32,000 bases of DNA from an uncultured archaeon (GTDB lineage: Archaea; Iainarchaeota; Iainarchaeia; Iainarchaeales; CSSED10-239), in the NCBI GenBank assembly GCA_964591795.1, contig CAZQEL010000002.1, forward strand, positions 6,312 through 38,311, given 5' to 3'. This document shows, one piece after another, positions 4,516 through 27,496 of this stretch. Below the pieces are notes generated by a model that did no database searches, was not told the origin of the DNA, and saw nothing but the letters and a program-made list of their open reading frames with translations. The translations under genes were made by a program, and so were the position numbers. Within the stretch, counting starts at the first letter, position 1, and each line of letters begins with the position of its first letter.

Positions 4516-4872
4516 ATGTTTACAAAAAAACAAAAAGGTCAAGTTTCAGTTGAAATGTTAATTATTTTAGGTGTAATTATACTTGTTGCTGTTGTTTTTG
4601 TATCATATTATTTATCAGTAATAAATAAAAATATAGATAAAACAAGTAATGTTCCTACTGGAGTTCAAGTTAATAATTTAATAGAAAATAGTTTTAATAA
4701 TCCTAACCTTACTTCTGCACCTACAAGTTTAGCTACTTGTGGAAATGGAACTATTGATCCTATGGAAGTTTGTGATTATCTTATTTTCCCATTTGGATTA
4801 ACTTGCGATAATATAACTGGTGCAGGTACAACTTTAGTGTGTACTGATTGTCTTGAAATTACTTGTACTTAA
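4516..4872 (+). CDS. archaeal type IV pilin (class III signal peptide, Epd-like) with a C-terminal Cys-rich CGNG...C-D unit
   Basis: The N-terminus MFTKKQKG|QVSVEMLIILGVIILVAVVF matches the prepilin pattern (K-G, then Gln at +1, then a hydrophobic helix). The C-terminus is CGNGTIDPMEVCDY...LTCDNITGAGTTLVCTDCLEITCT. Its N-terminal 45 aa are paralogous to the 30756-31922 protein. Confidence 0.8.
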   Translation: MFTKKQKGQVSVEMLIILGVIILVAVVFVSYYLSVINKNIDKTSNVPTGVQVNNLIENSFNNPNLTSAPTSLATCGNGTIDPMEVCDYLIFPFGLTCDNITGAGTTLVCTDCLEITCT

Positions 4873-9783: not shown

Positions 9784-9833
9784 TATAACTTACCCTGGAT
9801 ATTAAGAAATTGGTTTGTCCAGGGTAAGTTATA
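9784..9833. repeat. hairpin element, copy 1 (16-bp perfect arms TATAACTTACCCTGGA / TCCAGGGTAAGTTATA, 18-nt loop)
   Basis: The arms are 9784-9799 and 9818-9833. It is a GC-rich core in AT-rich DNA, just upstream of the Fic ATG at 9860. Confidence 0.8.
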
Positions 9834-9859
9834 TAAATCCTTTCACTCTATATATTTAT

Positions 9860-10843
9860 ATGGCATATATATATGTTAAGCAAATTGGTTCTAAAAAATA
9901 TTATTATTTAAGAGTTGATAAAAGGGTTAATGGTAAGAAAATCGTAAAAGATATTGCCTATCTTGGTTCTGATTTATCTAAAGTAGATGTAAAAAAACTA
10001 ATTAGTTCTTCTAAATATGGTAAGGAGATAACTAAAAGTTATAAACAAATAAATCATCTAATTACTTCTAACTATTATTATAGGAAAGCAGAGCTTTTAA
10101 AATATAAAAAAAACACTTATTTAACTAAAGAACAATTAATACGATTAAATGCTATTAGTTTTCATTTTTCTTCAAATTTTAAAAAATTGCATCAATTAAC
10201 TGCTGCTGATTTTTTAAATAATTTTGTAATTTCTTATACTTATAATACTACTTCAATTGAAGGAAATACAATTGCTCTGGCTGATGTTAAAAAAATATTA
10301 ACTGATGATTCAATTTATTTAAAAAATAAAACTTTAAGAGAGATTTATGATTTAAGAAATACAAAAGATACTTTTAATTATATTTTTAAAAACACTCTAA
10401 AATTAAGCCTTAAGGTTATTATTGATATTCATAAAAAATTAATGAAAGATGTTGATGATAGAGTGGGTTTTAGAAATTTTGATGTTAGAGTTTTTAAATC
10501 TCATTTTAAGTCTTCTCTTTATTTTAGGATTGATAAGGAAATTAACGATTTACTTTCTTGGTTTAATATATCTAAAGAAAATATTTTTGTAAGGGCAGTT
10601 ATTTTTCATCATAAATTTGAAAAGATACATCCTTTTGGAGATGGTAATGGACGGACAGGAAGAATGTTATTAAATTTAATTTTATTAAATAATAATTTAC
10701 CTCCTTTAATTATTACTAAGAAAAACAAAAAATTTTATTTTGATTCACTTTCAATTGCAGATAAAAAAGAAGATTATTCATTTTTAATTTCTTTTTTATT
10801 AGATGAGTATGAAAAAGGTTATTGGCAACATTTTATTTCTTAA
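9860..10843 (+). CDS. Fic/DOC family protein (class II, internal inhibitory helix)
   Basis: The Fic motif HPFGDGNGRTGR fits HxFx[DE]GNGRxxR. An upstream TTSIEGN fits the [ST]xxxE[GN] auto-inhibition motif. The start is moved to ATG 9860 (MAYIYVKQIGSKKYYYLR) because the TTG at 9815 lies inside the hairpin. Confidence 0.85.
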   Translation: MAYIYVKQIGSKKYYYLRVDKRVNGKKIVKDIAYLGSDLSKVDVKKLISSSKYGKEITKSYKQINHLITSNYYYRKAELLKYKKNTYLTKEQLIRLNAISFHFSSNFKKLHQLTAADFLNNFVISYTYNTTSIEGNTIALADVKKILTDDSIYLKNKTLREIYDLRNTKDTFNYIFKNTLKLSLKVIIDIHKKLMKDVDDRVGFRNFDVRVFKSHFKSSLYFRIDKEINDLLSWFNISKENIFVRAVIFHHKFEKIHPFGDGNGRTGRMLLNLILLNNNLPPLIITKKNKKFYFDSLSIADKKEDYSFLISFLLDEYEKGYWQHFIS

Positions 10844-10966: not shown

Positions 10967-10995
10967 TTGAATATGTGTTGTTTTATAATTATATT

Positions 10996-11247
10996 ATGGA
11001 TGAATTTATAGTTAGATTAAAAGGTAAGCCAAAAGAATACCTTGATATTCTACTTAAGGAAGGATATTTTAATACCAAAAGTGAAATTGTAAGACATGGT
11101 ATTTTAGCTCTTGCTAATAAATACAATGTAGAACAAGATTATGTTGTAGATAAAGATGAACTAATAAAAGTAGGTAAGGCTGTAAAAAGAGAATTAAGAG
11201 ATATTCAAAAAAAAAAAGTAAATTATATACTGAAGATGAATTTTTAG
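10996..11247 (+). CDS. ribbon-helix-helix (CopG/ParD-like) antitoxin
   Basis: MDEFIVRLKGKPKEYLDILLKEGYFNTKSEIVRHGILALANKY has the beta-strand, helix, helix pattern of RHH proteins. It lies directly upstream of a RelE-like ORF. The C-terminal frame is uncertain because of an A11 tract at 11207-11217. Confidence 0.6.
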   Translation: MDEFIVRLKGKPKEYLDILLKEGYFNTKSEIVRHGILALANKYNVEQDYVVDKDELIKVGKAVKRELRDIQKKKVNYILKMNF

Positions 11248-11288
11248 AATTATTTCCACATTTAAAAAAAGTAAAATAGTGGTATTTA

Positions 11289-11510
11289 TTGTATGATTAT
11301 AAGTTAACTGAATCATTTAAAAAAGATTTTGAAAAATTAGATGTTTCTTTTCAAATTATTATTTTTAAAAAAATAAAATATATTCTTTCGAATGATATTT
11401 CAAGAAAGCATTTAAAATATGGTTATCCTTATTTTGTATTAAAACTTAACATTTCTTCTAGACTTGTTTGTATGATTAAAAATGGTGTTCTTCTTTATAA
11501 TTTATTTTAA
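11289..11510 (+). CDS. relE: RelE/ParE-superfamily toxin-like protein
   Basis: This is a 73-aa protein. YKLTESFKKDFEKLDVSFQIIIFKKIKYIL...RLVCMIKNGVLLYNLF follows the RelE layout (Y-x-L...F-x-K-D-x-x-K-L...R-L-V/I-Y...). It pairs with an upstream RHH gene. It has a TTG start and a short C-terminus. Confidence 0.5.
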   Translation: MYDYKLTESFKKDFEKLDVSFQIIIFKKIKYILSNDISRKHLKYGYPYFVLKLNISSRLVCMIKNGVLLYNLF

Positions 11511-11543: not shown

Positions 11544-12674
11544 TTATTTTATTTTTTTAATAACTTCTTCGAAAAATAATTTAATTAAATAACCTAAACA
11601 AGGAGATGAGATGTAATTTGTGACTTCTGATATTTTTATCCATTTAAAATTAATGTGTGCTGGGATTTTTAGTTCTTCAGAATCTGTGGTAACATAGTAA
11701 TATTCAGTATATATTTTTTTAAATGTGTTTTCTGATTTTTCGTACCAGTGGTGGCAACCGCCCATTTTTTTTTCAATTATTTTTAAATTAGTAAGACCAG
11801 TTTCTAATTCAATTTCTTTTTTAATAACTTTAAGTGATTTTTTTATTTGTTTTTCTGATGGTTTTCCTTTTGGAAAACTCCAAAAACCACAACTGGTTTT
11901 ATTGTCTTCAAGTAAGAGTATTTTTTTAATTTTAGGATTGTATATTATTTTTCCTTTTGCATAATTAAATTTTATTTTTAATAATTTATTTTTTATATAT
12001 ATGTCTTCAAGATTTGTTTTATTTAGAGTTAATTCAAATTTTAAAATTTGATTTAAAATTATATCTTTATTAATTTTATTGTAATTTTTAATTTTTGAAA
12101 GCATTTTTTGTGTATCTTTAATATCTACTTTTAATTGATTTAAAAGTCTTGCATATTTATCTAAATTGTAATACATTTTATATTTGTTATTTTGAAAATA
12201 ATTTTCTAAAAACTCAATTCTTATTTTTGAAAAAACACTTGTAGTTTCAAATGAGAATTCAAAATAGGTTTTTGATTTAAGTAGGTTTAAAAGATCATCT
12301 TCAATTCTGTACCCATATATAAAAAAGCTATTAAGTATGAAATCATAAAGATAAGGGTAAAATAGATCTGTGGATATATTTTTTAAATTATTTTTATCTT
12401 GTGCATTTATTTTAAATTCAATTTCTATTTGGTATTTCTTACTTACATCTTCTTTAATTTTAGCTAAAGCATTAATATCTGTTTTTTTAAGTTCTTTATT
12501 TTTTGTAAAAACCATAACATTAAGGTCACTTTCTTTAGGAGTTACTTCTCCTCTTGCAAAAGAACCGTGAATATATACTGATTTTATAAATGGAAATTTT
12601 TTCTTATTAAAAATTGTTTTTAAATAGTTTGTTAATGTATAATATTCTTCTAGATTTTTATTTATAATATCCAT
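11544..12674 (-). CDS. nucleotidyltransferase (MNT/KNTase-like), helical region and Nudix-like domain fusion protein
   Basis: The N-terminus YIHGSFARGEVTPKESDLNVMVF is an NTase G-S...D-x-[DN] motif in which the second Asp is Asn. The C-terminus GFWSFPKGKPSEKQIKKSLKVIKKEIELETGL resembles a Nudix box (W-x-F-P-K-G...[RK]-E-U-x-x-E-x-G-U) with non-canonical positions. Confidence 0.6.
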   Translation of the reverse strand: MDIINKNLEEYYTLTNYLKTIFNKKKFPFIKSVYIHGSFARGEVTPKESDLNVMVFTKNKELKKTDINALAKIKEDVSKKYQIEIEFKINAQDKNNLKNISTDLFYPYLYDFILNSFFIYGYRIEDDLLNLLKSKTYFEFSFETTSVFSKIRIEFLENYFQNNKYKMYYNLDKYARLLNQLKVDIKDTQKMLSKIKNYNKINKDIILNQILKFELTLNKTNLEDIYIKNKLLKIKFNYAKGKIIYNPKIKKILLLEDNKTSCGFWSFPKGKPSEKQIKKSLKVIKKEIELETGLTNLKIIEKKMGGCHHWYEKSENTFKKIYTEYYYVTTDSEELKIPAHINFKWIKISEVTNYISSPCLGYLIKLFFEEVIKKIK

Positions 12675-12877
12675 ATCTTCTCAATATTTAGATTGTTATT
12701 TATATATTTTCTAGTATGTTTTTTAAAGGTATTTATTTTAGTGGTTTTTATTAAAACAAATTTTTTGTGTACACATAAAAAGATGATCTGTTTATAAATA
12801 TTATGTACTTTCATATTTTGAATACAAAAAAGAAACTTCTTTTTAAAAAAGAGATAATCATACAAGGATGGTACACA

Positions 12878-13210
12878 ATGAACAAAAAATATTTAATTGC
12901 AGGTATACTGTTAGTAATAGCTGCATCTTTTCTCTTAGCTGTTCAAATGAATTTTTCAGCTAATAAAAACAATAGTGATTTTATTGCAAAAAAAGATAAT
13001 ACAGTAAACATGTATGTTTTTTCAAAAACAACTTCTTTTGATCAATCACTTTATTTTGCAAATCAAAACCAAATTAAAAAGTGTAAATCTAGTCCACGTT
13101 GTATTGGTAACACTTGTGGGATTTGTAATACAGCATCATATGGTGCATTTTCTGCAAAACTTGCAAAAGATATTAACTGGGTAACAAAAGGTGTTATTAC
13201 GTCTGTTTAA
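12878..13210 (+). CDS. small membrane-anchored or secreted Cys-containing hypothetical protein
   Basis: MNKKYLIAGILLVIAASFLLAV is an N-terminal hydrophobic anchor or signal. The C-terminal part carries CKSSPRCIGNTCGIC. A hairpin and T tract follow the gene. The start is taken at ATG 12878 rather than 12803. Confidence 0.5.
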   Translation: MNKKYLIAGILLVIAASFLLAVQMNFSANKNNSDFIAKKDNTVNMYVFSKTTSFDQSLYFANQNQIKKCKSSPRCIGNTCGICNTASYGAFSAKLAKDINWVTKGVITSV

Positions 13211-16573: not shown

Positions 16574-16597
16574 GAATAAACTAATTTTAGTTTATTC
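16574..16597. terminator. 10-bp perfect hairpin between convergent corA and fcl (GAATAAACTA / TAGTTTATTC, 4-nt loop)
   Basis: The arms are 16574-16583 and 16588-16597. The right arm overlaps the fcl stop codon. It could act for both convergent transcripts. Confidence 0.4.
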
Positions 16598-17533
16598 TAA
16601 TATTCTTTCAACTTGTTCTTTATTATTTATTATTTCTAGTACCCCTTTACTTAAACTTCTTGGACTAAAGTTAGGGTATACTGATTTTAATCTTTGAATG
16701 TCTGTTCTTTTCTCAAAAGTACCATCTGGTTTAGATGCATCCCATTTAATTTCTCCAGACCAACCAATTTCTTTTCTAATTATTTCTGCAATTTCTTTTA
16801 TTGAATAATCAAAACCTGTGCCTATGTTTATTATTTGTTCTGAAGAATAATTATTCATTAAATACACTAATGCATCTGCACAATCATCACTGTATAATGC
16901 TTCACGTCTAGGTGTACCTGTTCCCCATAGCATTACTTCGTTACCTTTTTCTTTTGCAAGTAATATTTTTTTAATTAATCCTGGAATCATATGCCCATTT
17001 TCAAGATCATATGTGTCATTAAATCCATAAAGGTTAGTTGGCATAGCACAAATTGTATCAATATTATATTGTTTTCTATATAATTGGCATGCAACTATTC
17101 CAGTTCCTTTAGCAACTGCATATCCTTTGTTTGTTTCTTCAAGTTTACCTGCCATGAATCTATCTTCGTTTATTGGTTGAGGATTTTCTCTAGGGTATAT
17201 ACATGTAGACCCAGTGAATAATACTTTTGCTTTAGGGCAATTATTTTTAGTCGCTTCTAATAAATTTAAAATCATTGTTGTATTTTGATATAAAAAATCA
17301 GCTGGTCTTTGACTATTTCCTTGTATTCCTCCAACAAGACCTGCAACCATGAAAATATACTCTGGGGTTTCTTTTTTTAAATATTCTTCAATTTCTGATT
17401 TTTCTAATAAATTAAGTTCCTTACTTCTTGGTTTTAGAATATTATTGTGTCCTTGTTTTGTTAATGTTCTATATACTGCACTTCCAAGTAATCCATTCCC
17501 ACCTAAAAGTAATATTTTTGATTCTGTTTTCAT
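16592..17533 (-). CDS. fcl: GDP-L-fucose synthase (GDP-4-keto-6-deoxy-D-mannose 3,5-epimerase/4-reductase)
   Basis: It has the Rossmann motif LLLGGNGLLGSAV and the catalytic YAVAK (YxxxK). It also has PTNLYG and a PRREALYSDD-type block typical of Fcl/WcaG. It lies directly downstream of gmd. Confidence 0.9.
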   Translation of the reverse strand: MKTESKILLLGGNGLLGSAVYRTLTKQGHNNILKPRSKELNLLEKSEIEEYLKKETPEYIFMVAGLVGGIQGNSQRPADFLYQNTTMILNLLEATKNNCPKAKVLFTGSTCIYPRENPQPINEDRFMAGKLEETNKGYAVAKGTGIVACQLYRKQYNIDTICAMPTNLYGFNDTYDLENGHMIPGLIKKILLAKEKGNEVMLWGTGTPRREALYSDDCADALVYLMNNYSSEQIINIGTGFDYSIKEIAEIIRKEIGWSGEIKWDASKPDGTFEKRTDIQRLKSVYPNFSPRSLSKGVLEIINNKEQVERILE

Positions 17534-17543
17534 TATTTATCAC

Positions 17544-18599
17544 CTAGTATAATATTTTGTCATTATTTTTAATTAAATCATAATCAGATTTAACCATTAG
17601 CTTTACTAACTCTTCAAATTTAGTTTTTGCACTCCAACCTAATTTTTCTTTAGCTTTAGATGCATCTCCTAAAAGTATTTCAACTTCAGTTGGTCTGAAG
17701 AATCTTTCATTTATTTTAATTATTGTTTTTCCTGTGTTTGAATCAATTCCTATTTCATTAACTCCAGTTCCTTTCCAGGTAATTTCAATATCTAATTCTT
17801 TACAAGAAAGTTCAATAAATTCTCTAATAGAGTGGGTTTCTCCAGTTGCAATTACAAAGTCATCTGGTTTTTCTTGTTGGAGCATAAGATGCATTGCTTC
17901 AACATATTCTTTTGCATATCCCCAATCTCTTTTTGCATCTAAATTTCCTAATTCTAGGTTTTCTTGTAATCCTAATTTTATTTTAACAAGCCCTATTGTT
18001 ATTTTTCTAGTTACAAAATTAAATCCTCTTCTTTCTCCTTCGTGATTGAATAGAATTCCATTACAAGCATACATGTCATATGCTTCTCTATAGTTTTTAA
18101 CCATCCAAAAACTATATAATTTAGCAACACCATATGGACTTCTAGGGTAGAAGGGTGTGTTTTCAGTTTGAGGTGTTTCTAAAACTTTTCCAAATAATTC
18201 TGAGGTTGATGCTTGATAAAATTTAGTTTGTTTTTCAAGACCTAATACTCTTATTCCTTCAAGTAACCTTAAGGTTCCAATTGCATCTATTTGTGCTGTA
18301 ATTTCTGGAATTTCAAAAGAAACTCTTACATGGCTTTGTGCTGCAAGATTATAAACTTCGTCTGGTTGTATTAGTTTTAAAAGATTTAGGATAGATGTAG
18401 TATCTGTTAAATCTCCATAGTGTAAAAATAGTTTTTTATCTAATATTTCTTTATTATTATACAGATGATCAAGTCTCCATGTGTTAATTACACTTGCTCT
18501 TCTAATTAGTCCGTGGACAATATATCCTTTTTCTAAAAGCAATTCAGTTAAATGAGATCCATCTTGTCCTGTTATTCCAGTTATCAATGCTGTTTTCAT
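17544..18599 (-). CDS. gmd: GDP-mannose 4,6-dehydratase
   Basis: [40 protein letters not shown] is the canonical Gmd N-terminus. STSELFG and YGVAKLY are also present. Confidence 0.95.
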
Positions 18600-18694
18600 A
18601 TATTATATGTTAATTAGATATTTTTTTATAACTATTTATTTTCATTTAATTTTATTTAGATATGTTTTTATATATTTTAATATATATATATAAT

Positions 18695-19372
18695 ATGCAA
18701 AAGTTACTTTTTTCAAAAGAAAATCCTTTAAAATTAATTAATACTAATAAGAAAGTTATTTTTAATTTTTTAAACGTTGAAAGTCTTTGGCATTTTAAAA
18801 ACACTAAATATTATAACTCTCTTATTTTAAACAAAAATAATATTAATTTTCCTGATGGTAAGTTTGTTTCTAATAAATTAAAAGTACCTCAGCAAAGAGG
18901 CCCTTCATTTACTAAAAATTATTTAAAATCTCTTGAAGCTAAATCTAAAAAGCATTTTGTAATTGGAAATTGTACTGGTAAAGAATTATCTGTTGTTACA
19001 AATATACCCTTAAAGAATATTAAAGTATATTCTCCTTCCTTTATTAATAAAATTATTTTTTCAGACGTAGAAAAAAATAAAATTGCATCTTTATTGGCTT
19101 TATTTAAACCTGATTTTGTGTGGGTTGCTATTGGTGCACCTAAGCAAGAAATTTTATCTAATCAATTATATTTAAAATATGCATGTAATTATATAAATAT
19201 AGGCGCTGCAATTGATTTTTTAACTAATAAAAAATTAGAGGCTCCTAAGTTTTTTAGAATTTTATATTTAGAATGGTTTTATAGGTTAATTACAGATTTT
19301 AAAAGATCTAGAAAAAAAGTTTTTAGAAGTATAGTTGGTTTGAGATATTTAAAATATATTTCAGTTAAATAA
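18695..19372 (+). CDS. WecB/TagA/CpsF-family glycosyltransferase (GT26)
   Basis: It carries FPDGK..., PDFVWVAIGAPKQE and GAAIDFL...EAP...LEWFYRL, the conserved blocks of GT26. The start is taken at ATG 18695. Confidence 0.75.
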   Translation: MQKLLFSKENPLKLINTNKKVIFNFLNVESLWHFKNTKYYNSLILNKNNINFPDGKFVSNKLKVPQQRGPSFTKNYLKSLEAKSKKHFVIGNCTGKELSVVTNIPLKNIKVYSPSFINKIIFSDVEKNKIASLLALFKPDFVWVAIGAPKQEILSNQLYLKYACNYINIGAAIDFLTNKKLEAPKFFRILYLEWFYRLITDFKRSRKKVFRSIVGLRYLKYISVK

Positions 19373-19389
19373 ATAATAAATTGAATGTT

Positions 19390-20502
19390 ATGATTATAAA
19401 AAAAAGAGTATTATTTTTAGTTAGATTACCTCCTCCTATGCATGGGGCTGCAAAAATGAATTCTTTGTATTTAAATAGTAAAATTTTAAAAAATGAATTT
19501 AATATTCATCATATTAAATTAAACTCTTATTCTTCATTAGTGAATAATATTTTTAAATATTTTTTAGTATTATTTGGTTTTTTCAAAGTTTTGTTATTAT
19601 TATTATTTAAACTAATTTTTTTTAAACCTAAATTAGTTTATTTTGAAATTGCACCTAAAGGAGGTGCATTTTATAGAGATAGTATTTATTTATGGATTTG
19701 TAAATTATTTTTTAAGAAAGTTGTTTGTCAATTTCATGCAAAAGGGGTTTATTCAGAATTAAGTTTAAAATTTAAAATTAAATATTATAAATCAGTTTTT
19801 AAAAATGTTAAAGTTATATTGTTATCTGAAAGTTTATACTCTGATGTTTCTTTAGTTATACCTAAATCAAATATTTTTTATTTGCCAAATGGTATTAAAG
19901 ATGAGCTTACAGATATTGGTTTTAAGAAGTTATGTTCTATTAAAAAAGATTCAAAAATATTAAATTTATTATACTTATCAAATATGATCGAAACAAAAGG
20001 GTCTTTAGATGTATTAAAAATATGTGATTTATTAAAAAATAAGGGTATTAAATTTAAATGTAATTTTGTAGGTAATTGGGATTCAGATGTTTTTAAAGAA
20101 AAATGGTTTTTAACACTTAAAAAATATAATTTAACTGAAAATTGTTTTTATTTAGGTCCTAAGTATGGTTCTGAAAAAAATCAATTATTAAGTAATGTTG
20201 ATTATTTGGTTTTCCCTACTAAATATCCAATGGAATGTTATCCACTTGTAATTTTAGAGGCTTTTATGTTTGGGGTGCCTGTCTTGTCTTATAATAATGG
20301 TGCAATTAAAGATATAATTAACCAAAACTATTTAGGCTTTGCGTCTTTAAATAATAATTATATTGATTTATATAAATATATAATAAATAATAAATTTACT
20401 TTGTCTCAAAAGATAAAAATTAGAAATATATTTATACAGAATCATTTATTAATTAAATATGAAATAACTTTAAAAAATATATTTTTAAGTGTGATTAAAT
20501 GA
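19390..20502 (+). CDS. group 1 glycosyltransferase (GT4-like)
   Basis: The C-terminal block is GSEKNQLLSNVDYLVFPTKYPMECYPLVILEAFMFGVPVLSYNNGAIKDII (E-x7-E region). The stop TGA overlaps the next gene's start (ATGA). Confidence 0.75.
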   Translation: MIIKKRVLFLVRLPPPMHGAAKMNSLYLNSKILKNEFNIHHIKLNSYSSLVNNIFKYFLVLFGFFKVLLLLLFKLIFFKPKLVYFEIAPKGGAFYRDSIYLWICKLFFKKVVCQFHAKGVYSELSLKFKIKYYKSVFKNVKVILLSESLYSDVSLVIPKSNIFYLPNGIKDELTDIGFKKLCSIKKDSKILNLLYLSNMIETKGSLDVLKICDLLKNKGIKFKCNFVGNWDSDVFKEKWFLTLKKYNLTENCFYLGPKYGSEKNQLLSNVDYLVFPTKYPMECYPLVILEAFMFGVPVLSYNNGAIKDIINQNYLGFASLNNNYIDLYKYIINNKFTLSQKIKIRNIFIQNHLLIKYEITLKNIFLSVIK

Positions 20503-21335
20503 GTTTTAAAAAAATTATAACTTCAATTAAAATTTTAAGAGATATTGTTGTATTCTGTTATAGATTAAAAATAGTTTTTAACAATATTATTAATAATCTA
20601 TATTTATCTTTTAAATGGTTATTTATATCTCGAGAAACAACTAATTTTACTTATGATTTAACTAAGCTTAACAAAATTTATTTAGCTCAAACAATTTCTC
20701 ATATAGTTGACAAATCTTTTGATGAAATTTATAATTACATTTTAGAGGTTGAAAATGATAATTCTTTAAAAAAACATATTATAACTGAAACTAAAAAAAG
20801 TGATCAAAGATTTAAATCTAATAAAACCGTCTATTTTGGAAGAAGAATAGGTTGGTATGCTATAGTACGGGCTATTAAACCAAAGGTTATTGTAGAAACT
20901 GGTGTTGATAAAGGTCTAGGTGCTTGTATATTAACTGCTGCATTAATAAAAAATAATTCTGAAGGTTATAAAGGTTATTATTACGGAACGGATATTAATC
21001 CAAAAGCAGGTTTTTTACTTAAAAATAAGTATAAAAATTTTGGAGAAATTTTATATGGTGATTCTATTAAGTCTTTAAAACATTTGTCTAAAAAAATTGA
21101 TTTATTTATTAATGATAGTAATCATTCTGCAGATTACGAATATAATGAATATAAAGTCATTTTAAATAAACTTTCTAAAAATTCGATTATATTAGGTGAT
21201 AATGCTCATTATAATTCTAAATTATTTTCTTTTTCAAAAAAATATAATAGATCTTTTTTATTTTTTTCTGAAGATCCTAAAAATCATTTTAAAAATGGAG
21301 CAGGAATTGGTTTTTCATATATTATAAATAAATAG
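20499..21335 (+). CDS. class I SAM-dependent methyltransferase (Methyltransf_24-like)
   Basis: It carries VIVETGVDKGLGACIL (motif I-like), YGTDINP and LFINDSNHS. Confidence 0.6.
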   Translation: MSFKKIITSIKILRDIVVFCYRLKIVFNNIINNLYLSFKWLFISRETTNFTYDLTKLNKIYLAQTISHIVDKSFDEIYNYILEVENDNSLKKHIITETKKSDQRFKSNKTVYFGRRIGWYAIVRAIKPKVIVETGVDKGLGACILTAALIKNNSEGYKGYYYGTDINPKAGFLLKNKYKNFGEILYGDSIKSLKHLSKKIDLFINDSNHSADYEYNEYKVILNKLSKNSIILGDNAHYNSKLFSFSKKYNRSFLFFSEDPKNHFKNGAGIGFSYIINK

Positions 21336-21343
21336 TGATGTAA

Positions 21344-22033
21344 ATGGATGTAAAAAAGTTATATAATAATATTGTAATTAAAAAGGATAGTTCTTTTTTA
21401 AAGTTTAATTTAAATAGTTGGCCTAAAACTAGATATGAAGCAGCAGTTAAATTTATAAATATTAAACCTACTTCAAAGGTATTAGATGTTGGTTTTGGGA
21501 ATGGAGATTTACTTAATTTTATTTTTCAAAAAACAAAATATACTTATGGTGTAGAAGTTTCTAAAAAAAAATTAATGTATGTGAATAATTTATTACCATT
21601 AAAAGCTAATTTATCTTTACAAGATATTAGTAATAAAACAAATTTTAAAAATGATTTTTTTAATATTATTTTTTTAACTGATGTTTTTGAACATATTATA
21701 GATAGATATTCTGTAATGAATGAATTAAAAAGAATATTAAAAAAAGATGGAATTATAGTTATTATTACACCTAATATCGCTAAATTAAAATCCAGAATAA
21801 GATTATTATTTGGAATTTATCCTTTTACCTCAGAAGATAGAGTTTCAGAGAAAAAAAAGTTCATTTATGATGGTGGACATATTCAATGGTATACTTTTAA
21901 AACCATCTCTAGTTTAGCAAAACAATTTGATTTAAATATTGAAAAAAGATTTGGATATGGGTTATTTGGACAGCTACATAACATTTATCCTTCTTTATTG
22001 TCAGGTTCTATAGCTATTATTTTAAAAAAATAA
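21344..22033 (+). CDS. class I SAM-dependent methyltransferase
   Basis: Motif I is VLDVGFGNGDL. It also carries FLTDVFEHI and LKKDGIIVIITPN. Confidence 0.75.
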   Translation: MDVKKLYNNIVIKKDSSFLKFNLNSWPKTRYEAAVKFINIKPTSKVLDVGFGNGDLLNFIFQKTKYTYGVEVSKKKLMYVNNLLPLKANLSLQDISNKTNFKNDFFNIIFLTDVFEHIIDRYSVMNELKRILKKDGIIVIITPNIAKLKSRIRLLFGIYPFTSEDRVSEKKKFIYDGGHIQWYTFKTISSLAKQFDLNIEKRFGYGLFGQLHNIYPSLLSGSIAIILKK

Positions 22034-22045
22034 ATTTTGATATAT

Positions 22046-22966
22046 ATGACTTATAATATACCTATTTTGTTTTTAGTTTTTAATAGACCAAAAGAAACTA
22101 AAAAATCTTTGCAAGAAATAAAAAAAATAAAGCCTACTAAATTATATGTTGTTGCAGACGGGCCAAGAAAAAATAATTTAAATGACGATTTAAATTGTAA
22201 ATTAGTGAGACAAATTATAAATGATGGTGTTGATTGGGATTGTGAAGTTAAAACTATTTTTAGAAATAAAAATTTAGGTTGTAGAAATTCAATTTCTTTA
22301 GGAATTACTTGGTTTTTTAAAAAAGAAGAGATGGGAGTCATTTTAGAAGATGACTGTATACCTAATAACACTTTTTTTACATTCTGTGAAATGATGTTAT
22401 TAAAATATAGACTCAATAGTCCAGTTATGCATGTTTCTGGCAATTCATTTATAGATGATAGTATTAGAAATAATTATTTAGATGGAGATTATTTTTTTTC
22501 TAAATTTCCACATATTACTGGATGGGCTACTTGGAGAAGAGCTTGGGATTTATATGATGCGGATTTAATTGATTATAATAAAAAAAGTGCTAATGTAATA
22601 TCAAAAAACAACACTCAAATTTTAGAAAAATTTTATTGGAAATTTATTTTTAATTCAGTTTATTCTAAAAAAATTAATTCTTGGGGTTATATTTGGTTAT
22701 ATAGTATTTGGCAAAATAATGGGTTGTCTATCCAGCCAAAATATAATCTAGTGAAAAATATAGGTTTCGGTGAAAATGCACTTCATACTAAAAATAGTAT
22801 TAATGGTTTGTTAAAAAATTATGATTATCGTTTAAAAAAACATCCTAAATTAATTAAATCTAATAAATTAATAGATGATTTTATTTCTAAAACTTATTAT
22901 AACATATCTATAAAAGGTTTATTTTTAAAAGTTATAACTAATTTTAAATTTTTATTTAAAAAATAA
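22046..22966 (+). CDS. nucleotide-diphospho-sugar transferase (GNT-I-like family)
   Basis: IPILFLVFNRPKETKKSLQEIKKIKPTKLYVVADGPR and ILEDDCIPNNTFFTFC match the pattern of GNT-I/HlpA-like glycosyltransferases. Confidence 0.55.
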   Translation: MTYNIPILFLVFNRPKETKKSLQEIKKIKPTKLYVVADGPRKNNLNDDLNCKLVRQIINDGVDWDCEVKTIFRNKNLGCRNSISLGITWFFKKEEMGVILEDDCIPNNTFFTFCEMMLLKYRLNSPVMHVSGNSFIDDSIRNNYLDGDYFFSKFPHITGWATWRRAWDLYDADLIDYNKKSANVISKNNTQILEKFYWKFIFNSVYSKKINSWGYIWLYSIWQNNGLSIQPKYNLVKNIGFGENALHTKNSINGLLKNYDYRLKKHPKLIKSNKLIDDFISKTYYNISIKGLFLKVITNFKFLFKK

Positions 22967-22975
22967 TCTTTTTAA

Positions 22976-23827
22976 TTATTCTTTTTTAAAAATATAGTAT
23001 TTTAATTGAACTTCAATTTCTTGAAGTATATCTTTAATGAGTATAATTGGTTTTAAATATATTTCATTAGTAAATCTTTTTGATTCTATTAAATCATATA
23101 ATTTATTTTTTATAAAATTTATTTTTTTAAATATGTTATTAGTTTTGGGTGGCGAGATGATATTTGTTGAAGTATAATACCCATATATACTTCCTTGATG
23201 CACTAGTGGTTTATTAATCCAATATATTTTTAATTTATTTTTTTTGCAAACGTATTTAAATTCCTCATCCATAGGGATAGTAAACTGATATGTTTGTTTT
23301 AAAATTGTATTCAAACATTTTTTATTTATTAAATATGCTCCTGTTCCCCAAGATCCTCTTTTATTTTTAAATAACCCTTTTTTTTTAAAGGTTCTATATT
23401 TATTGTCATTTAGTAAATCTAGAAAACAAACATCTCAATCCAATCTGTTTAATTTTAAAATACATTCTTTTATTTTTTTTAAAAAGTTTGGTTCTATTAT
23501 TACATCATCTTCCAAAATTAATGCATAGTTATAATTTGATTGGTATATTTTCATCCATATTTTGTAATGATTTAAATTTAGATTTATACTTGCTTTTGAT
23601 AAATTATAAAATGGGGTATTCTTTTTGTTTAAGTATTTAAATTTATTTAACCATATTTGTTTATTTGGTATGTATCTTTTTTTAATTGTGTCTTGAGTAT
23701 GTTCATTTTTGTTTTGAATAATAAAATTAACCTTTTGTTTAATTGATTTAAATGTTTTGTTTAAATAATTGTATCTTTCAACTAAGGGTTTGTAATTAAT
23801 AATATATATTTCAACCATATTTTTCAA
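22976..23827 (-). pseudogene. GT25-family glycosyltransferase interrupted by one in-frame TGA (23435-23437)
   Basis: ORFs 23435-23827 and 22976-23314 are in the same frame. The read-through gives ...KIKECILKLNRLD*DVCFLDLLNDNKYRTFKKKGLFKNKRGSWGTGAYLINKKCLNTIL... GT25 blocks are present: IYIINYKPLVERY, NHYKIWMKI...YALILEDDVII and WGTGAYLI. Confidence 0.7.
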
Positions 23828-23904
23828 AATTATTTTTATTTTTTTAATTGTTATTTAAAGTATAATCCTAATAGTTTTTATATTTATTGGAGTTATATTA
23901 TTTC

Positions 23905-24738
23905 ATGAGGATTGTTAAAATTACAAGTGGGTTAGGAAATCAGTTGTTTCAATATGCATTTGCAAGAGTTGTGTCTATAGAAACTAATGAAAAAGTAATG
24001 TTAGATATTAGTAATTATAAATTTTATAGTGATAGATTATTTTCATTAAATTTATTTAATTTATTTGAATTTAAATATATAAATTCGTATTTTTATTTTA
24101 TTTTATTCATTTTTATTTATAAGCTTAATAAATTTTGGCCTTATTTATTTAAAAATATTTATTTTGAAAAATATCCTTGTAATTATAATTCAAAATTGCC
24201 TTCTAATAAGTTTTATTTTCAAGGTTATTTTCAATCAGAAAAATATTTTAATAAATATAGACCTTTACTTTTAAATGAAATTACTTTAAAAAAACCATTA
24301 AATTCAAAATATATTTCAATATTAAATAATAATAATAACACAGTTTCTATTCATGTTAGAAGAGGTGATTATTTAAATGAATTAAATAAATCTATCTTTA
24401 TTACTTTTTCTTCTGATTATTATTTTGATGCAATTAAATTAATAGTTAAAAAAGTTAAAAATCCATTCTTTTTAATTTTTTCTGATGATATTGTGTGGTG
24501 TAAAAAAAATTTAAATATTGATTATCCTCATCTTTTTATAAATTCTTCTTCGCCAGAACAAGACTTAATTTTAATGAGTAAATGCAAACACAATATTATT
24601 TCTAATAGTTCATTTAGTTGGTGGGGTGCTTGGTTAAATAAAAGTAGAAATAAAATTGTAATTGCTCCTAAAAAATGGATGAATAAAAATTTAATTTATT
24701 ATAAAGATATTTGTCCAAATTATTGGGTTAGAATTTAA
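23905..24738 (+). CDS. alpha-1,2-fucosyltransferase (GT11)
   Basis: The GT11 signature blocks are present: SGLGNQLFQYAFAR, HVRRGDY and ISNSSFSWWGAWL. The start is taken at ATG 23905. Confidence 0.9.
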   Translation: MRIVKITSGLGNQLFQYAFARVVSIETNEKVMLDISNYKFYSDRLFSLNLFNLFEFKYINSYFYFILFIFIYKLNKFWPYLFKNIYFEKYPCNYNSKLPSNKFYFQGYFQSEKYFNKYRPLLLNEITLKKPLNSKYISILNNNNNTVSIHVRRGDYLNELNKSIFITFSSDYYFDAIKLIVKKVKNPFFLIFSDDIVWCKKNLNIDYPHLFINSSSPEQDLILMSKCKHNIISNSSFSWWGAWLNKSRNKIVIAPKKWMNKNLIYYKDICPNYWVRI

Positions 24739-25514
24739 TTTTTAGTAAACCAGAAAAGGCCTGTTCCATAATTCCTATTTTTGGTTCTATATTTATCCTG
24801 GAGTTTTCCATTATAAATATATTTTTCTTCTACTAATTTGCAATTATGAAATTTTGTTAATATATATTCTTTTGTAAATGCTCTGTGTGCATTAAAATAA
24901 ATAGTGTTTTCATTATGCACAGGGACACTTATAAATATATTTCCTTTTTTTGATGTTACTCTTATAATTTCTTTAATTGCTTTTTCACTCCCTAATTCAT
25001 CTAATTTATCTCCATATCTTCCTAATCCAATATGTTCTATGACACAAAGACTAGAAATTGATTTTATGGAATTATTTTTAAATGGAAGAGTTGTAATATC
25101 TCCTTTTATGAAATTTAAATTTTTTAATTTTATTGGTAATGGTCTTATATCAACCATATATGTTTTTGTGAATTGAGATATTATGCCAATTGTTTTTGCA
25201 TTACTACCGACATCGTAATGTTCTTTTGGATTAAGTTCAAATATTTTTTTTGCAGCCCATGTATCTTGATAAAAATAGTCTATGGCCAAAGGAGTTTCTT
25301 TAGTATTATCATTTATACAAGGAAAAAGGTATTTTATTTTAAACTCTTTATTTTTTTTAGTTAATATTAAATCTTTTAAATATTTACTATTTTTTTTTAA
25401 ATAAGTAATTATTTTAAATTTAAAATTTTCTTTTATTGACAGATATATAAAATATGTGGATAATAATATTTTTGAGTTTTCAATTTTTGATTTAATTTTA
25501 TATTTTATTTTCAT
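24735..25514 (-). CDS. SAM-dependent methyltransferase (DUF268/Methyltransf_11-like)
   Basis: It carries YDVGSN...MVDIRP, GDITTLPF, SLCVIEHIGLGRYGD and KKGNIFISVP. Its 3' end overlaps the GT11 gene end by 4 nt (convergent). Confidence 0.65.
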   Translation of the reverse strand: MKIKYKIKSKIENSKILLSTYFIYLSIKENFKFKIITYLKKNSKYLKDLILTKKNKEFKIKYLFPCINDNTKETPLAIDYFYQDTWAAKKIFELNPKEHYDVGSNAKTIGIISQFTKTYMVDIRPLPIKLKNLNFIKGDITTLPFKNNSIKSISSLCVIEHIGLGRYGDKLDELGSEKAIKEIIRVTSKKGNIFISVPVHNENTIYFNAHRAFTKEYILTKFHNCKLVEEKYIYNGKLQDKYRTKNRNYGTGLFWFTKN

Positions 25515-25532
25515 TTCGTATCTTTCCTATAA

Positions 25533-25960
25533 TTATTTAAATATATTTTCTGGGTTAAATTTTTGATATGAATCTTTGCCACAAGTTATTTTTTCGTTAT
25601 AAAAATCAACCGATTCTTTAGCAAATAATAGTTGTTTATTTTTTTCCCCATTGATGTTTGAGTATTGTGCACTCTATAATGAAATAAAATATATTTTATG
25701 TTAAATAATTTTTTCCCATCTGCTAATAATTGTAAAAAAAATCATAATCTTGCGCGTAAAAAATTTCCTATCTATACCTAATTTTTGTATTGCTTCTAAA
25801 CATTATACTAGGGTGGTAAATTCTATTTTGTCCATTTGCTATGTCTTTTTGTATTTTTTGGAATTAATTTATATAAATAAGGGTTATTTACTTTTGAATA
25901 TACTTTATATTGTTCTTCTTTATTCATATGTGTTTCAAACCCTAAATAATTAGTTATTTC
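25533..25960 (-). pseudogene. decayed GT2-family glycosyltransferase remnant (C-terminal half only, stop codons and frameshifts)
   Basis: Minus-strand hand translation gives IANGQNRIYHPSIMFRSNTKIRYR*EIFYAQDYDFF. After a 1-nt slip in the A7 run at 25734-25740 it continues (L)QLLADGKKLFNIKYILFHYRVHNTQTS. This matches the GT2 blocks HPS-x-MFR and [ED]DYDLWLRL...YRVH. No N-terminal DxD half was found. It ends 18 nt upstream of the 25514 start. Confidence 0.55.
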
Positions 25961-26120
25961 TTAATATTTTTGAATAAAACCATTTATATGCTTTTCTAAT
26001 AGTAAATATATCGTAATCAGGTAATATTAATTACAAATAAAATTGTTTAATAAATTTTAAAAAAATATTTTTAACGAACAACACAGAATCATAATGCTAT
26101 TTATTTAGTGTTTTAAATTG

Positions 26121-26196
26121 TCCTCACAAAAAAACTATTTTTTAATTTTTATAAGTTTTATTTTTTAAAGATTGAAAGTCTTTGTAGTTTTTATTA
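26121..26196 (+). promoter_or_regulatory. conserved upstream boxes A and B of csp copy 1
   Basis: Box A, TCCTCACAAAAAAACTATTTTTTAAT (26121-26146), matches 24 of 26 with 26702-26727. Box B, TCTTTGTAGTTTTTATTA (26179-26196), is identical to 26755-26772. Box B contains a TATA-like TTTTTATTA 36 nt upstream of the ATG. Confidence 0.5.
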
Positions 26197-26232
26197 CACT
26201 AAATAAAAAATATATAAAAGAGTGAAAAAAAT

Positions 26233-26424
26233 ATGAATGGTACTGTTAAATTTTACAACATCAACAAAAACTTTGGTTTCATAACTGGAGAAGACGGAAA
26301 GGACTACTTTGTTCACGGTTCAGGAATTGCTGACAATGAAACACTTAGAGATGCTATGCCAGTTTCTTTTGATGTAACTGAAGATGAAAAAGGTCAAAAA
26401 GCAATTAACGTAAGAAAAGCTTAA
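26233..26424 (+). CDS. csp: cold-shock domain protein (CspA family), copy 1
   Basis: The 63-aa protein MNGTVKFYNINKNFGFITGEDGKDYFVHGSGI carries an RNP1-like motif (K-N-F-G-F-I) and an RNP2-like motif (Y-F-V-H). Confidence 0.9.
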   Translation: MNGTVKFYNINKNFGFITGEDGKDYFVHGSGIADNETLRDAMPVSFDVTEDEKGQKAINVRKA

Positions 26425-26456
26425 TTGTTATAATTGATTAATTTGCGTTTATACTG

Positions 26457-26483
26457 AATAATAAAAATTTAATTTTTATTATT
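26457..26483 (+). terminator. 13-bp perfect A/T hairpin (AATAATAAAAATT t AATTTTTATTATT) followed by TTTT
   Basis: It lies 33 nt downstream of the csp1 stop. The arms are 26457-26469 and 26471-26483. The all-A/T composition lowers its significance. Confidence 0.35.
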
Positions 26484-26701
26484 TTTTATCTTATTTTTTA
26501 ATATTTATGCTTAGTTTTTAAGTTCTAATTTTACTACTTTTTTTAGCAAAAGATTATATTTATATACTTTTCTAATCTATAATTACATTATATATATATG
26601 GTAATAACTATAAAATTAAAGATAAAAAAAACAAAAAGTAATTGAAAATATTTTTAAAAAATAAATTCAGTTAATGCCTAATTTAATGACATTGAACACA
26701 T

Positions 26702-26772
26702 TCCTTACAGAAAAACTATTTTTTAATATATTTATTTATTTCGCGAATTAACTATCTTTGTAGTTTTTATTA
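26702..26772 (+). promoter_or_regulatory. conserved upstream boxes A and B of csp copy 2
   Basis: See 26121-26196. Box A is 26702-26727 and box B is 26755-26772, 46 nt upstream of the ATG. Confidence 0.5.
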
Positions 26773-26818
26773 TATTATATAAAAAAACAAAAAAAATATA
26801 AAAAAGAGAGAAAAATAT

Positions 26819-27010
26819 ATGAATGGTACTGTGAAGTTTTATAACTTTAAAAAAAATTTTGGTTTTATAACTGGAGAAGATGATAAGGATTATTTTGTAC
26901 ATAGTTCAGGTATCGCAGATGATCAAATGATTAAAGATGGTATGCCAGTTTCTTTTGATGTAACAGAAGATGATAAAGGCCAAAAAGCAATTAATGTTAC
27001 AAAAATATAA
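26819..27010 (+). CDS. csp: cold-shock domain protein (CspA family), copy 2
   Basis: MNGTVKFYNFKKNFGFITGEDDKDYFVHSSGI is a 63-aa paralog of 26233-26424. Confidence 0.9.
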   Translation: MNGTVKFYNFKKNFGFITGEDDKDYFVHSSGIADDQMIKDGMPVSFDVTEDDKGQKAINVTKI

Positions 27011-27496
27011 ATTTTTAATTAACATTTAAAAAAAATTATTTGTTTTTTGCAAAAAAACACCTTATACCCAAATTAGTCTTTTTTTAATTAAAAGGGCTAA
27101 TTTCTTTCTATTTTTATAATTTTATAGTTATTTATTGCTTTTTAAAATCAAGTTTATGTACTAAATACTAGTTAACTTAACTAGATTAACCATTAATTGT
27201 TAGTTTTGTGTTTCTTTTTTCAAAATATCTTTGTTTTCTAAACTAAATCTAATTATAATCATTTTTCTTTATAATTACTTTATATTCTGCTTTTTTAAAT
27301 AGTTATCTAACATCAATAAAGAGGTTTAAAACGTGATAAGTTAAAAAAACAACAAAACACTGCCCTTTAAAAAAAATAAAGAGTAAATTTTGTGAATTTT
27401 TTTTACGGCCACGACCTCTCCCTTCCAATTAATTAATAACCACTTTAAACTTAAGATTATTTTAATTAAATAAACAATTAAAAAAGTGAATAATAA

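Follow-up and report, generated by a model that had tools for sequence, protein, structure and literature searches.

A diverged nucleotidyltransferase–helical–Nudix paralog with altered catalytic motifs, under purifying selection at a conserved locus of DPANN archaea

The window, that is the whole stretch of DNA analysed here, comprises 32,000 nucleotides of an uncultured archaeon of the Iainarchaeales (assembly GCA_964591795.1, contig CAZQEL010000002.1, positions 6,312 to 38,311). It has a G+C content of about 22-25%, encodes MCM, RPA, an S-layer protein and a class III signal peptide pilin, and is collinear with Candidatus Forterrea multitransposorum (CP045477.1) and with metagenome-assembled genomes (MAGs) of Ca. 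Iainarchaeum/ainarchaeum (DPANN/Diapherotrites). The subject of this analysis is a minus-strand gene of the window for a protein in which a nucleotidyltransferase (NTase) head, a helical middle and a Nudix-fold tail are joined. The gene was found to be a diverged duplicate within a small, uncharacterised archaeal family, with changes in both catalytic sites and under strong purifying selection. The protein is identical to a public entry (P0107) labelled 'predicted nucleotidyltransferase', and its full-length orthologs are 59-65% identical to it. By eye, two overlapping plus-strand open reading frames (ORFs) inside the gene (79 and 66 amino acids, aa) were taken to have arisen by chance in AT-rich DNA. 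Neither Rfam nor tRNA scans gave a match in the window. The parts of the gene are listed below, the derived lineage being the group of D-x-N proteins to which the window protein belongs.

11544..12674, minus strand: NTase–helical–Nudix gene, 376 aa, ATG start, stop codon at 11544-11546 (ORF list)
12375..12674, minus strand: NTase head, aa 1-100, MNT/KNTase-type Pol-beta fold (Pfam, PDB profile search, AlphaFold2)
12561..12566, minus strand: G37-S38, the hG[GS] motif for binding of nucleoside triphosphate (NTP), before helix 2; invariant in 21/21 N-terminal homologs
12519..12527, minus strand: D50-L51-N52, Asn at the expected second metal-binding Asp; D-x-N invariant in the derived lineage
12417..12419, minus strand: E86 on strand beta3, at the position of the usual third carboxylate; lineage-specific and invariant in the derived lineage
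11979..12374, minus strand: helical middle, aa 101-232, a short strand (117-121) and seven helices within 106-229 (AlphaFold2 pLDDT mostly >90)
11547..11978, minus strand: Nudix-fold tail, aa 233-376 (Pfam NUDIX, Foldseek, matches to stand-alone Nudix proteins)
11889..11891, minus strand: C262, invariant and lineage-specific Cys of the loop that precedes the WSFPKG strand (alignment)
11793..11867, minus strand: degenerate Nudix box GKPSEKQIKKSLKVIKKEIELETGL, aa 270-294, where the orthologs vary most
11751..11756, minus strand: C307-H308, invariant pair in the long central beta-hairpin (alignment)
11655..11663, minus strand: P338-A339-H340, remnant of the family-conserved SxEH, its Glu lost (alignment)
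11598..11600, minus strand: C359, invariant and lineage-specific Cys where the C-terminal helix begins, SSPCLGY (alignment)

A three-part protein had been proposed in a first-pass annotation made from the sequence alone, and the two peptides quoted there were both found in the translation (HGSFARGEVTPKESDLNVMVF, aa 36-56, and WSFPKGKPSEKQIKKSLKVIKKEIELETGL, aa 265-294). That architecture was borne out, with Pfam matches above the cut-off for both named domains. In the head (aa 18-95) NTP_transf_2 scored 32.8 bits against a cut-off of 21 and Polbeta 29.2 against 26.9. An AlphaFold2 (AF2) model built with five sequences reached a pLDDT of 54 and was discarded; the model used instead, from a 74-sequence alignment, has a pLDDT of 92.6 and a pTM of 0.90. 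It gives the head the secondary structure helix-strand-strand-helix-strand. When the family profile was searched against PDB sequences, MNT-type proteins (9xbd, 5e-6; 2rff; 1ylq) and the KNTase 6p01 (0.006) were matched. The head is thus of the Pol-beta type known from KNTase/LinB (ANT(4')) and from MNT proteins (AF0614, 9xbd), with hGS and an acidic strand motif (profile matches from 5e-6 to 0.03), and in KNTase and LinB a helical bundle follows the head, as it does here. The sequence similarity is confined to the head; the window protein differs in its Asn as second ligand, in the additional Nudix domain and in having no resistance or toxin-antitoxin (TA) context.

The helices of the middle part span residues 106-229, about 125 aa rather than the ~170 aa first estimated. 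This part is the best-conserved segment among the orthologs (67-83% identity) and has no match of its own in Pfam and PDB sequence searches. A HEPN-like identity was rejected for it because the Rx4-6H motif is absent from the alignment, which was read directly.

For the tail, the Pfam NUDIX call at aa 243-351 is marginal (22.0 bits, cut-off 21.1). It is secured by dozens of stand-alone proteins of ~140 aa that HMMER aligned to the tail alone, those scanned or named being Nudix proteins, and by superposition of the AF2 tail on known structures. Foldseek placed the modelled tail on the Aquifex Ap4A hydrolase 3i7u (TM 0.84) and also on RppH, Ap4A/Ap6A hydrolases and Dcp2 (among them 1ktg, 1vc8 and 3ees), the Ap4A/Ap6A hydrolase–RppH–Dcp2 group giving the best structural matches. 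PDB matches at E<=1e-3 numbered 398, and the tail has the Nudix alpha/beta/alpha fold. The best PDB sequence matches of the tail were to Dcp2 (E ~0.006). Searched as a whole against the PDB and BFVD (viral predicted structures), the model returned Nudix matches only (TMq <= 0.32), with no full-length analogue and nothing informative for the NTase head or the helical part. The gene therefore encodes a three-domain protein, in which a Pol-beta NTase head of MNT/KNTase type is followed by a helical bundle and then by a Nudix fold.

No characterised protein joining a Pol-beta-type NTase to a Nudix domain was found in PDB sequence and fold searches or in the searchable full-text literature, in agreement with the earlier remark that this is not a recognised characterised architecture. 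NTase–Nudix fusion as such is not unprecedented, and the protein is best described as known domains in an uncharacterised architecture. The N-terminal domain of the window protein is Pol-beta-type and gave no CTP_transf_like or NMNAT match, whereas NadM, the partner in a known fusion, is a Rossmann-type (HIGH-motif) adenylyltransferase and not a Pol-beta-type enzyme. The NadM–Nudix protein (Huang et al. 2008, cited in PMC5389931) has been characterised and joins a nucleotidyltransferase to a Nudix hydrolase; it shows that pairings of this sort can be metabolic rather than signalling. Both its domains are catalytically canonical, unlike those of the window protein.

The catalytic motifs of the head had been read as D-L-N in place of D-x-D, and those of the Nudix box as K-E-I-E-L-E-T-G-L in place of REUxEExGU; both readings are correct. 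When the metal ligands were aligned, the second Asp of the NTase and several Nudix residues were seen not to be retained in the window protein. The [DE]-h-[DE] pair of strand 2 is incomplete (D50-L-N52), and SD[LIM]D is the state in every other active-looking homolog, in contrast to the D-x-N of the derived lineage. The remainder of the site (GS, R41, E43 and S49-D50) is intact, and in the derived lineage the loop around it, HGSFARGE[IV][TV]PKESD[LI]N, hardly varies. Position 86, which is V or T in all D-x-D relatives, is Glu in the lineage and aligns with the Glu of AF0614 'PFEFHIL', so that by alignment E86 would provide the third carboxylate.

The Nudix box of the window protein reads G270-x5-Q276-x9-K286-E-I-E-L290-E-T-G-L, the consensus being G-x5-E-x7-R-E-U-x-E-E-x-G-U. 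Gln replaces Glu at 276, Lys replaces Arg at 286, Leu replaces Glu at 290, and x9 stands where x7 is usual. Of the five key residues, three are altered in the window protein (E287 and E291 are retained), and the orthologs depart further from the consensus. Compared with the Ap4A/RppH/Dcp2 enzymes, the window protein lacks the Glu of Gx5E, the Arg and one Glu of REUxEE, and the downstream Glu, while its orthologs lack all of these. Across the derived lineage the box runs from REIEEETGL (P0001) through KEIELETGL (window), KEIQETTGI (P0002) and EEIEKNTGI (P0003) to KDIK[ND]NCGI in the Forterrea-type copies. The SxEH position is KEH in P0001 and PAH in the window and is gone in the rest; within the lineage only P0001 has the Glu of Gx5E and that of SxEH. 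Syntenic orthologs (KDIKNNCGI, EEIEKNTGI) have lost all of the Nudix-box glutamates. Because every catalytic carboxylate is missing from them, pyrophosphohydrolysis cannot, judging from these motifs, be the function conserved in the derived lineage.

Other residues of the lineage have become fixed. The invariants are D50-x-N52, E86, the three new cysteines (C262, C307 and C359) and H308. The cysteines are the only ones in the window protein and are all missing from the canonical relatives; His308 is the majority residue family-wide, and Cys307 is confined to the derived lineage. In MutT-type structures the nucleotide-binding cleft is lined at least by the elements that correspond to the loop of C262 and to the helix start of C359.

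The extent of the family was determined with word-indexed searches of 5.8 billion proteins and with an exhaustive HMMER search of 1.84 billion representatives using the ortholog profile. The former returned only four close orthologs (59-65% identity); the latter added about 15 more distant full-length relatives (23-33% identity). Among 99 HMMER matches at E<=1e-3 about 20 were full-length, the others being stand-alone Nudix proteins or NTase plus helical part. The full-length members align end to end with the profile (E = 3e-66 to 1e-19; coverage of about 1-365 in P0005-P0009, P0014 and P0016), which establishes homology over the whole length. All 15 full-length relatives outside the derived lineage have a complete Gx5E, REUxEExGU and downstream Glu before the last strand. 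S-x-E-H is present in 13 of them, and the other two (P0018 and P0038) still have its Glu. GS with S-D-x-D is found in 10 of the 15; in the other five the NTase motifs are lost, for example as S-N-[IL]-N (P0009, L018p). So far the family has been found only in DPANN-type archaeal MAGs and metagenomes, under generic public labels ('predicted nucleotidyltransferase', 'NUDIX domain-containing protein', 'MutT/predicted nucleotidyltransferase'). It is a small, uncharacterised archaeal family and not a widespread housekeeping enzyme of known function, which is how the idea of an unusual fusion might have failed.

The gene context of the canonical members was examined in seven distinct cases (P0104/L009-10, P0015, P0103/L012-15, P0013/L011, P0005/L016/L075-76, L017 and L018). 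The canonical gene lies directly downstream of a PfkB-type sugar kinase gene, often overlapping it by a few codons. The PfkB gene is usually preceded by a gene for inositol-3-phosphate synthase (MIPS; NCBIfam 1.8e-109) with a divergent inositol monophosphatase, and a small gene of ~200 aa, P-loop kinase-like with SSO1041/AdkA-like resemblance, follows the NTase–Nudix gene. Based on this conserved gene order, the ancestral enzyme is tied to inositol-phosphate or sugar-phosphate metabolism and not to defence. The operon may represent an undescribed inositol-phosphate pathway of DPANN archaea; a literature search returned nothing relevant on a link between NTase, Nudix and inositol or on an MNT–Nudix fusion.

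The PfkB neighbour, searched as a single sequence against the PDB, gave no match, and its profile gave generic ribokinase-like matches, among which 3w4s, a PfkB-family kinase of Thermococcus, was matched weakly (E=0.005). Because these are generic, its assignment as an 'inositol kinase' is not justified. Searches of Pfam, NCBIfam and the PDB with two conserved genes downstream of the canonical paralog (L016, 8142-9149 and 9142-9777) gave no match. Near the canonical operon of L012-L015 there are also genes for a CYTH protein, a stand-alone Nudix protein and an NTP_transf_5 protein. The MIPS gene is split in L016 (5115-6182) and L075 (1115-2182), with ORFs of 215 and 128/139 aa; it is intact (355 aa) in L076 (1115-2182), a very similar locus with an identical NTase–Nudix protein.

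The canonical proteins, represented by MDD4049763.1 and MDO8537691.1, resemble the window protein in architecture, length, end-to-end alignment and archaeal group. They differ in mostly having D-x-D, no Glu on beta3, a complete Nudix set, no Cys triad and a place in the MIPS–PfkB–P-loop operon, whereas the window protein has D-x-N with E86, a degenerate box and three new cysteines, and its gene lies between those for RPA and a pilus-type ATPase. Neither the window gene nor any of its 12 syntenic orthologs is adjacent to PfkB or MIPS genes. Both forms occur together in relatives. The MAG Ca. ainarchaeum sp. STF1_257 encodes the derived MDD4049820.1 (L007) and the canonical MDD4049763.1 (P0005 cluster), the 168,078-bp Ga0334897_000095 carries P0113 (derived) and P0121 (canonical), and the 368,344-bp Ga0334884_1000004 carries P0113 (derived) and P0005/P0122 (canonical, L016). 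The two paralogs are ~32% identical. The derived lineage is monophyletic with 100% bootstrap, and the branching of the window protein with P0001 received 51%. Since this last branching is weak, the erosion of the box may have been stepwise or independent. The window gene is therefore a diverged duplicate that co-exists with a canonical copy in the same genomes of relatives.

The strength of selection was estimated from the Forterrea-type copies, which have the most eroded box. Their dN/dS is 0.05-0.08, with for example 21 synonymous and 6 non-synonymous changes over 193 and 926 sites, respectively (P = 9e-12 under neutrality). The Nudix-like domain by itself shows 8 synonymous against 2-3 non-synonymous changes (P ~3e-5 to 1e-4 for pairs with L001, <=0.012 for other pairs). 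Based on these ratios the gene is under strong purifying selection. Across the lineage, identity is highest in the helical region (67-83%) and lowest in the Nudix-like tail (49-64%). Relaxed constraint is thus shown for the Nudix catalytic residues and strong constraint for the remainder of the protein. The divergence of the whole protein (59-65% identity) equals that of CorA (59-66%); it is slower than that of the S-layer protein and faster than that of RPA and the ATPase.

An 'inactive relic' had been offered as one explanation of the altered motifs, i.e. a gene pseudogenising after duplication had made it redundant. The eroded motifs and the evolution faster than that of RPA and the ATPase would fit, as would the ortholog of Ca. 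Iainarchaeum archaeon FAS170219_bin_363 (L008, 7992-9116), which is broken into ORFs of 80, 182 and 87 aa. One of its two frameshifts is at an A9 run at about codon 74; the other is a -1 shift that falls within the former Nudix box, at about codon 280, and is not at a homopolymer. The 182-aa fragment is recorded on two contigs, and this copy is either a pseudogene or an assembly error. A decaying gene is nevertheless quite improbable given the low dN/dS with P values down to 9e-12, an intact full-length frame in the window and at least 11 other loci, a divergence rate the same as that of CorA, and long invariant blocks with newly fixed C262, C307, C359, E86 and N52.

The locus itself is conserved. 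In 12/12 related loci with flanks (L001, L002, L004, L006, L007, L008 and L069-L074) the ortholog lies between RPA (divergent) and a T2SSE-type ATPase (same strand). The NTase–Nudix gene is fixed in this part of the chromosome. The neighbours named in the first-pass annotation (Fic, RHH, RelE, the pilus ATPase and RPA) were all recovered. The accessory islet in which it had placed them was not, the Fic gene being the only window-specific member. The genes immediately beside the NTase–Nudix gene are as follows.

9815-10843, plus strand: Fic-domain protein (Pfam 3e-21; PADLOC PDC-S04/SoFic 2e-36)
10975-11510, plus strand: ribbon-helix-helix (RHH) antitoxin-like and RelE/YafQ-like pair (Pfam; weak RHH match, very weak RelE match)
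12803-13210, plus strand, in the interval from the NTase–Nudix gene to that for RPA: small proteins that begin with a hydrophobic helix (KKYLIAGILLVIAASFLLAVQ; 37-42% identity to weakly conserved homologs in L001/L004/L006/L007/L008)

The Fic protein has a canonical HPFGDGNGRTGR motif and an upstream inhibitory-helix-like TTSIEGN; its listed TTG start may lie too far upstream. No counterpart was found by tblastn in six relatives or among the genes called in L069-L074, and Fic is the only clearly recent insertion at the locus. The RHH/RelE pair is intact and identically arranged in L008 (9111-9668, minus strand; 69% identity), and the RHH gene is reduced to a 60-aa remnant in L001, L006 (9211-9393, minus strand) and L007, which are Forterrea-type. 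The RelE-like ORF is C-terminally shorter in the window (73 aa) than in L008 (87 aa), which suggests decay; the true RHH start is likely at 10996 (MDEFIVRLKG). The pair is ancestral at the site, an old and decaying neighbour. The synteny comparison proposed for the islet thus upheld the absence of Fic from relatives and went against the rest, the NTase–Nudix gene being conserved and the RHH/RelE pair ancestral. What had been taken for an islet is one recent insertion, Fic, beside an old decaying TA pair.

This arrangement bears on two explanations that draw on the neighbours. According to the first, the NTase makes a nucleotide product or signal that the Nudix tail degrades, so that the protein would limit its own product and act, together with Fic and RelE, in signalling or immunity. 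Both domains are detectable, E287 and E291 are kept in the window, the box of P0001 is fully canonical, and those canonical relatives in which D-x-D and the Nudix box are both intact might be enzymes of this sort; PADLOC gave weak domain-level matches to candidate MNT- and Nudix-type defence families (PDC-S09/S07). The explanation is improbable for the window protein, since the box glutamates and the Glu of SxEH are gone in the syntenic orthologs, the gene is fixed at the locus whether or not Fic or the TA pair is present, MntA of NCBIfam scores 21 where the cut-off is 60, and the canonical relatives lie in a metabolic MIPS–PfkB operon and not in a defence context. CD-NTase/cyclase models of PADLOC did not match the window protein, so that for CBASS or other known defence the weak and generic PDC-S09/S07 matches are all that PADLOC returned, for a gene in a conserved chromosomal position. 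The make-and-degrade scheme of the first-pass annotation is not sustained by these results.

According to the second, the protein is an MNT-type antitoxin (type VII TA-like) or another TA component that has the RelE-like/RHH genes beside it as partners. NCBIfam gave a weak match to MntA (E=1.9e-4), and the RHH/RelE pair is adjacent, convergent in the window and in L008. The MntA match stays at 21.2 bits against the cut-off of 60, Pfam detected no HEPN domain among the neighbours, and RHH/RelE is by itself a complete type II pair; it is decayed in most of the relatives, in which the NTase–Nudix gene is still present. Because of the convergent orientation, the NTase–Nudix and RHH/RelE genes do not form one operon. 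Such a role is very unlikely.

Taken as a whole, we consider it somewhat probable that the protein is a selected, diverged paralog in which the Nudix tail is a non-hydrolytic module and the NTase site is altered. The tail would no longer be a pyrophosphohydrolase, its motifs suggesting at best weak activity in the window and making activity impossible to expect in several orthologs; by analogy it may be retained as a ligand-binding or structural module. The intact GS, R41, E43 and S49-D50 predict that the head still binds NTP. It would then either transfer a nucleoside monophosphate through a rearranged metal site (D50, E86 and the carbonyl of Asn52) or only sense the nucleotide. The ligand or target is probably related to the nucleotide and inositol- or sugar-phosphate chemistry of the canonical paralog, and the protein would have no functional tie to the Fic and RHH/RelE genes beside it. 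It could plausibly regulate the canonical paralog, for example in a heterodimer formed through the helical domain by analogy with KNTase dimers.

Retention of a Nudix fold after loss of catalysis has precedents. The Nudix clan includes a non-enzymatic class (PMC5389931), and the NUDT9-H domain of TRPM2 is catalytically dead yet retained (PMC6461439, PMC4974056). In TRPM2 NUDT9-H, DBC1 and NrtR-type proteins the fold has been kept after loss of the box for ligand binding or regulation, as may be the case here. The partner in such proteins is an ion channel or a DNA-binding domain, whereas in the window protein it is an NTase.

Several points weigh against this preferred reading. Since two of the three box glutamates (E287 and E291) are still there, the window protein may have residual hydrolase activity. 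Replacement of Asp by Asn at a metal ligand normally cripples Pol-beta-type NTases, and as S-N-x-N relatives also exist, the head may be inactive too. The co-occurrence of the paralogs was seen in genomes of relatives, and the inositol link comes by paralogy alone, such neighbours being absent around the derived copy. The two frameshifts of L008 show that loss of the gene is possible.

If the head is dead as well, both sites would be catalytically lost and the protein, a 'double pseudoenzyme', would bind a nucleotide or other ligand and regulate the canonical paralog, for example through a heterodimer with a KNTase-like interface. Several observations agree with this. Both forms occur in the same genomes, the change of D to N recurs among family members (P0009 and L018p read SN[IL]N), and the Nudix box is eroded yet the fold is under selection. 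The dimer interface of KNTase is formed by the helical region, and it is this region that is most conserved here (67-83%). The paralogs, however, are merely ~32% identical and their physical interaction is a prediction, and the strictly invariant GS...SD-x-N loop with the new E86 resembles a maintained active site more than mere binding. This possibility is regarded as unlikely. In its most explicit form, the derived paralog would be a sensor in which the Nudix glutamates were swapped for a putative Cys3-His (possibly metal-binding) site and the head acquired D52N/V86E; it would sense a nucleotide–inositol or nucleotide–sugar-phosphate metabolite and regulate the canonical enzyme of a putative DPANN inositol-phosphate pathway. 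That proposal, too, is speculative and probably not correct as it stands.

The rest of the window offers some observations of its own. Upstream of the locus lies one further feature that may belong with its neighbours.

4516-4872, plus strand: class III signal-peptide (pilin-like) protein

The small hydrophobic-helix proteins, this pilin-like protein and the T2SSE-type ATPase may form a dispersed type-IV-pilus-like set. A surface-glycan cluster at 16592-25514 encodes GDP-mannose 4,6-dehydratase and an epimerase/reductase (GDP-fucose-type pathway), WecG/TagA, GT1/GT4, GT11 (fucosyltransferase-like) and GT25 glycosyltransferases and several methyltransferases; its gene content is unlike that of the corresponding Forterrea region (L001). 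The ~2 kb at 25515-27496, upstream of the MCM gene (27497-29635), contain no ORF >=100 aa and gave no Rfam or tRNA match.

With regard to the locus, the analysis corrects its reading, Fic alone being a recent insertion. With regard to the protein, the derived and canonical copies provide a natural example of what follows duplication of a bifunctional enzyme, one copy remaining canonical and the other showing free drift of its Nudix residues, and the step from enzyme to binding module is directly testable with a few recombinant proteins. Ca. Forterrea has been described as having a 'minimal metabolism' (PMC5905446). In such genome-reduced DPANN archaea, a family consisting of Pol-beta NTase, helical bundle and Nudix domain is found in close linkage with genes for inositol-3-phosphate synthase and a PfkB kinase, and this linkage points to a nucleotide/inositol-phosphate pathway in DPANN archaea.

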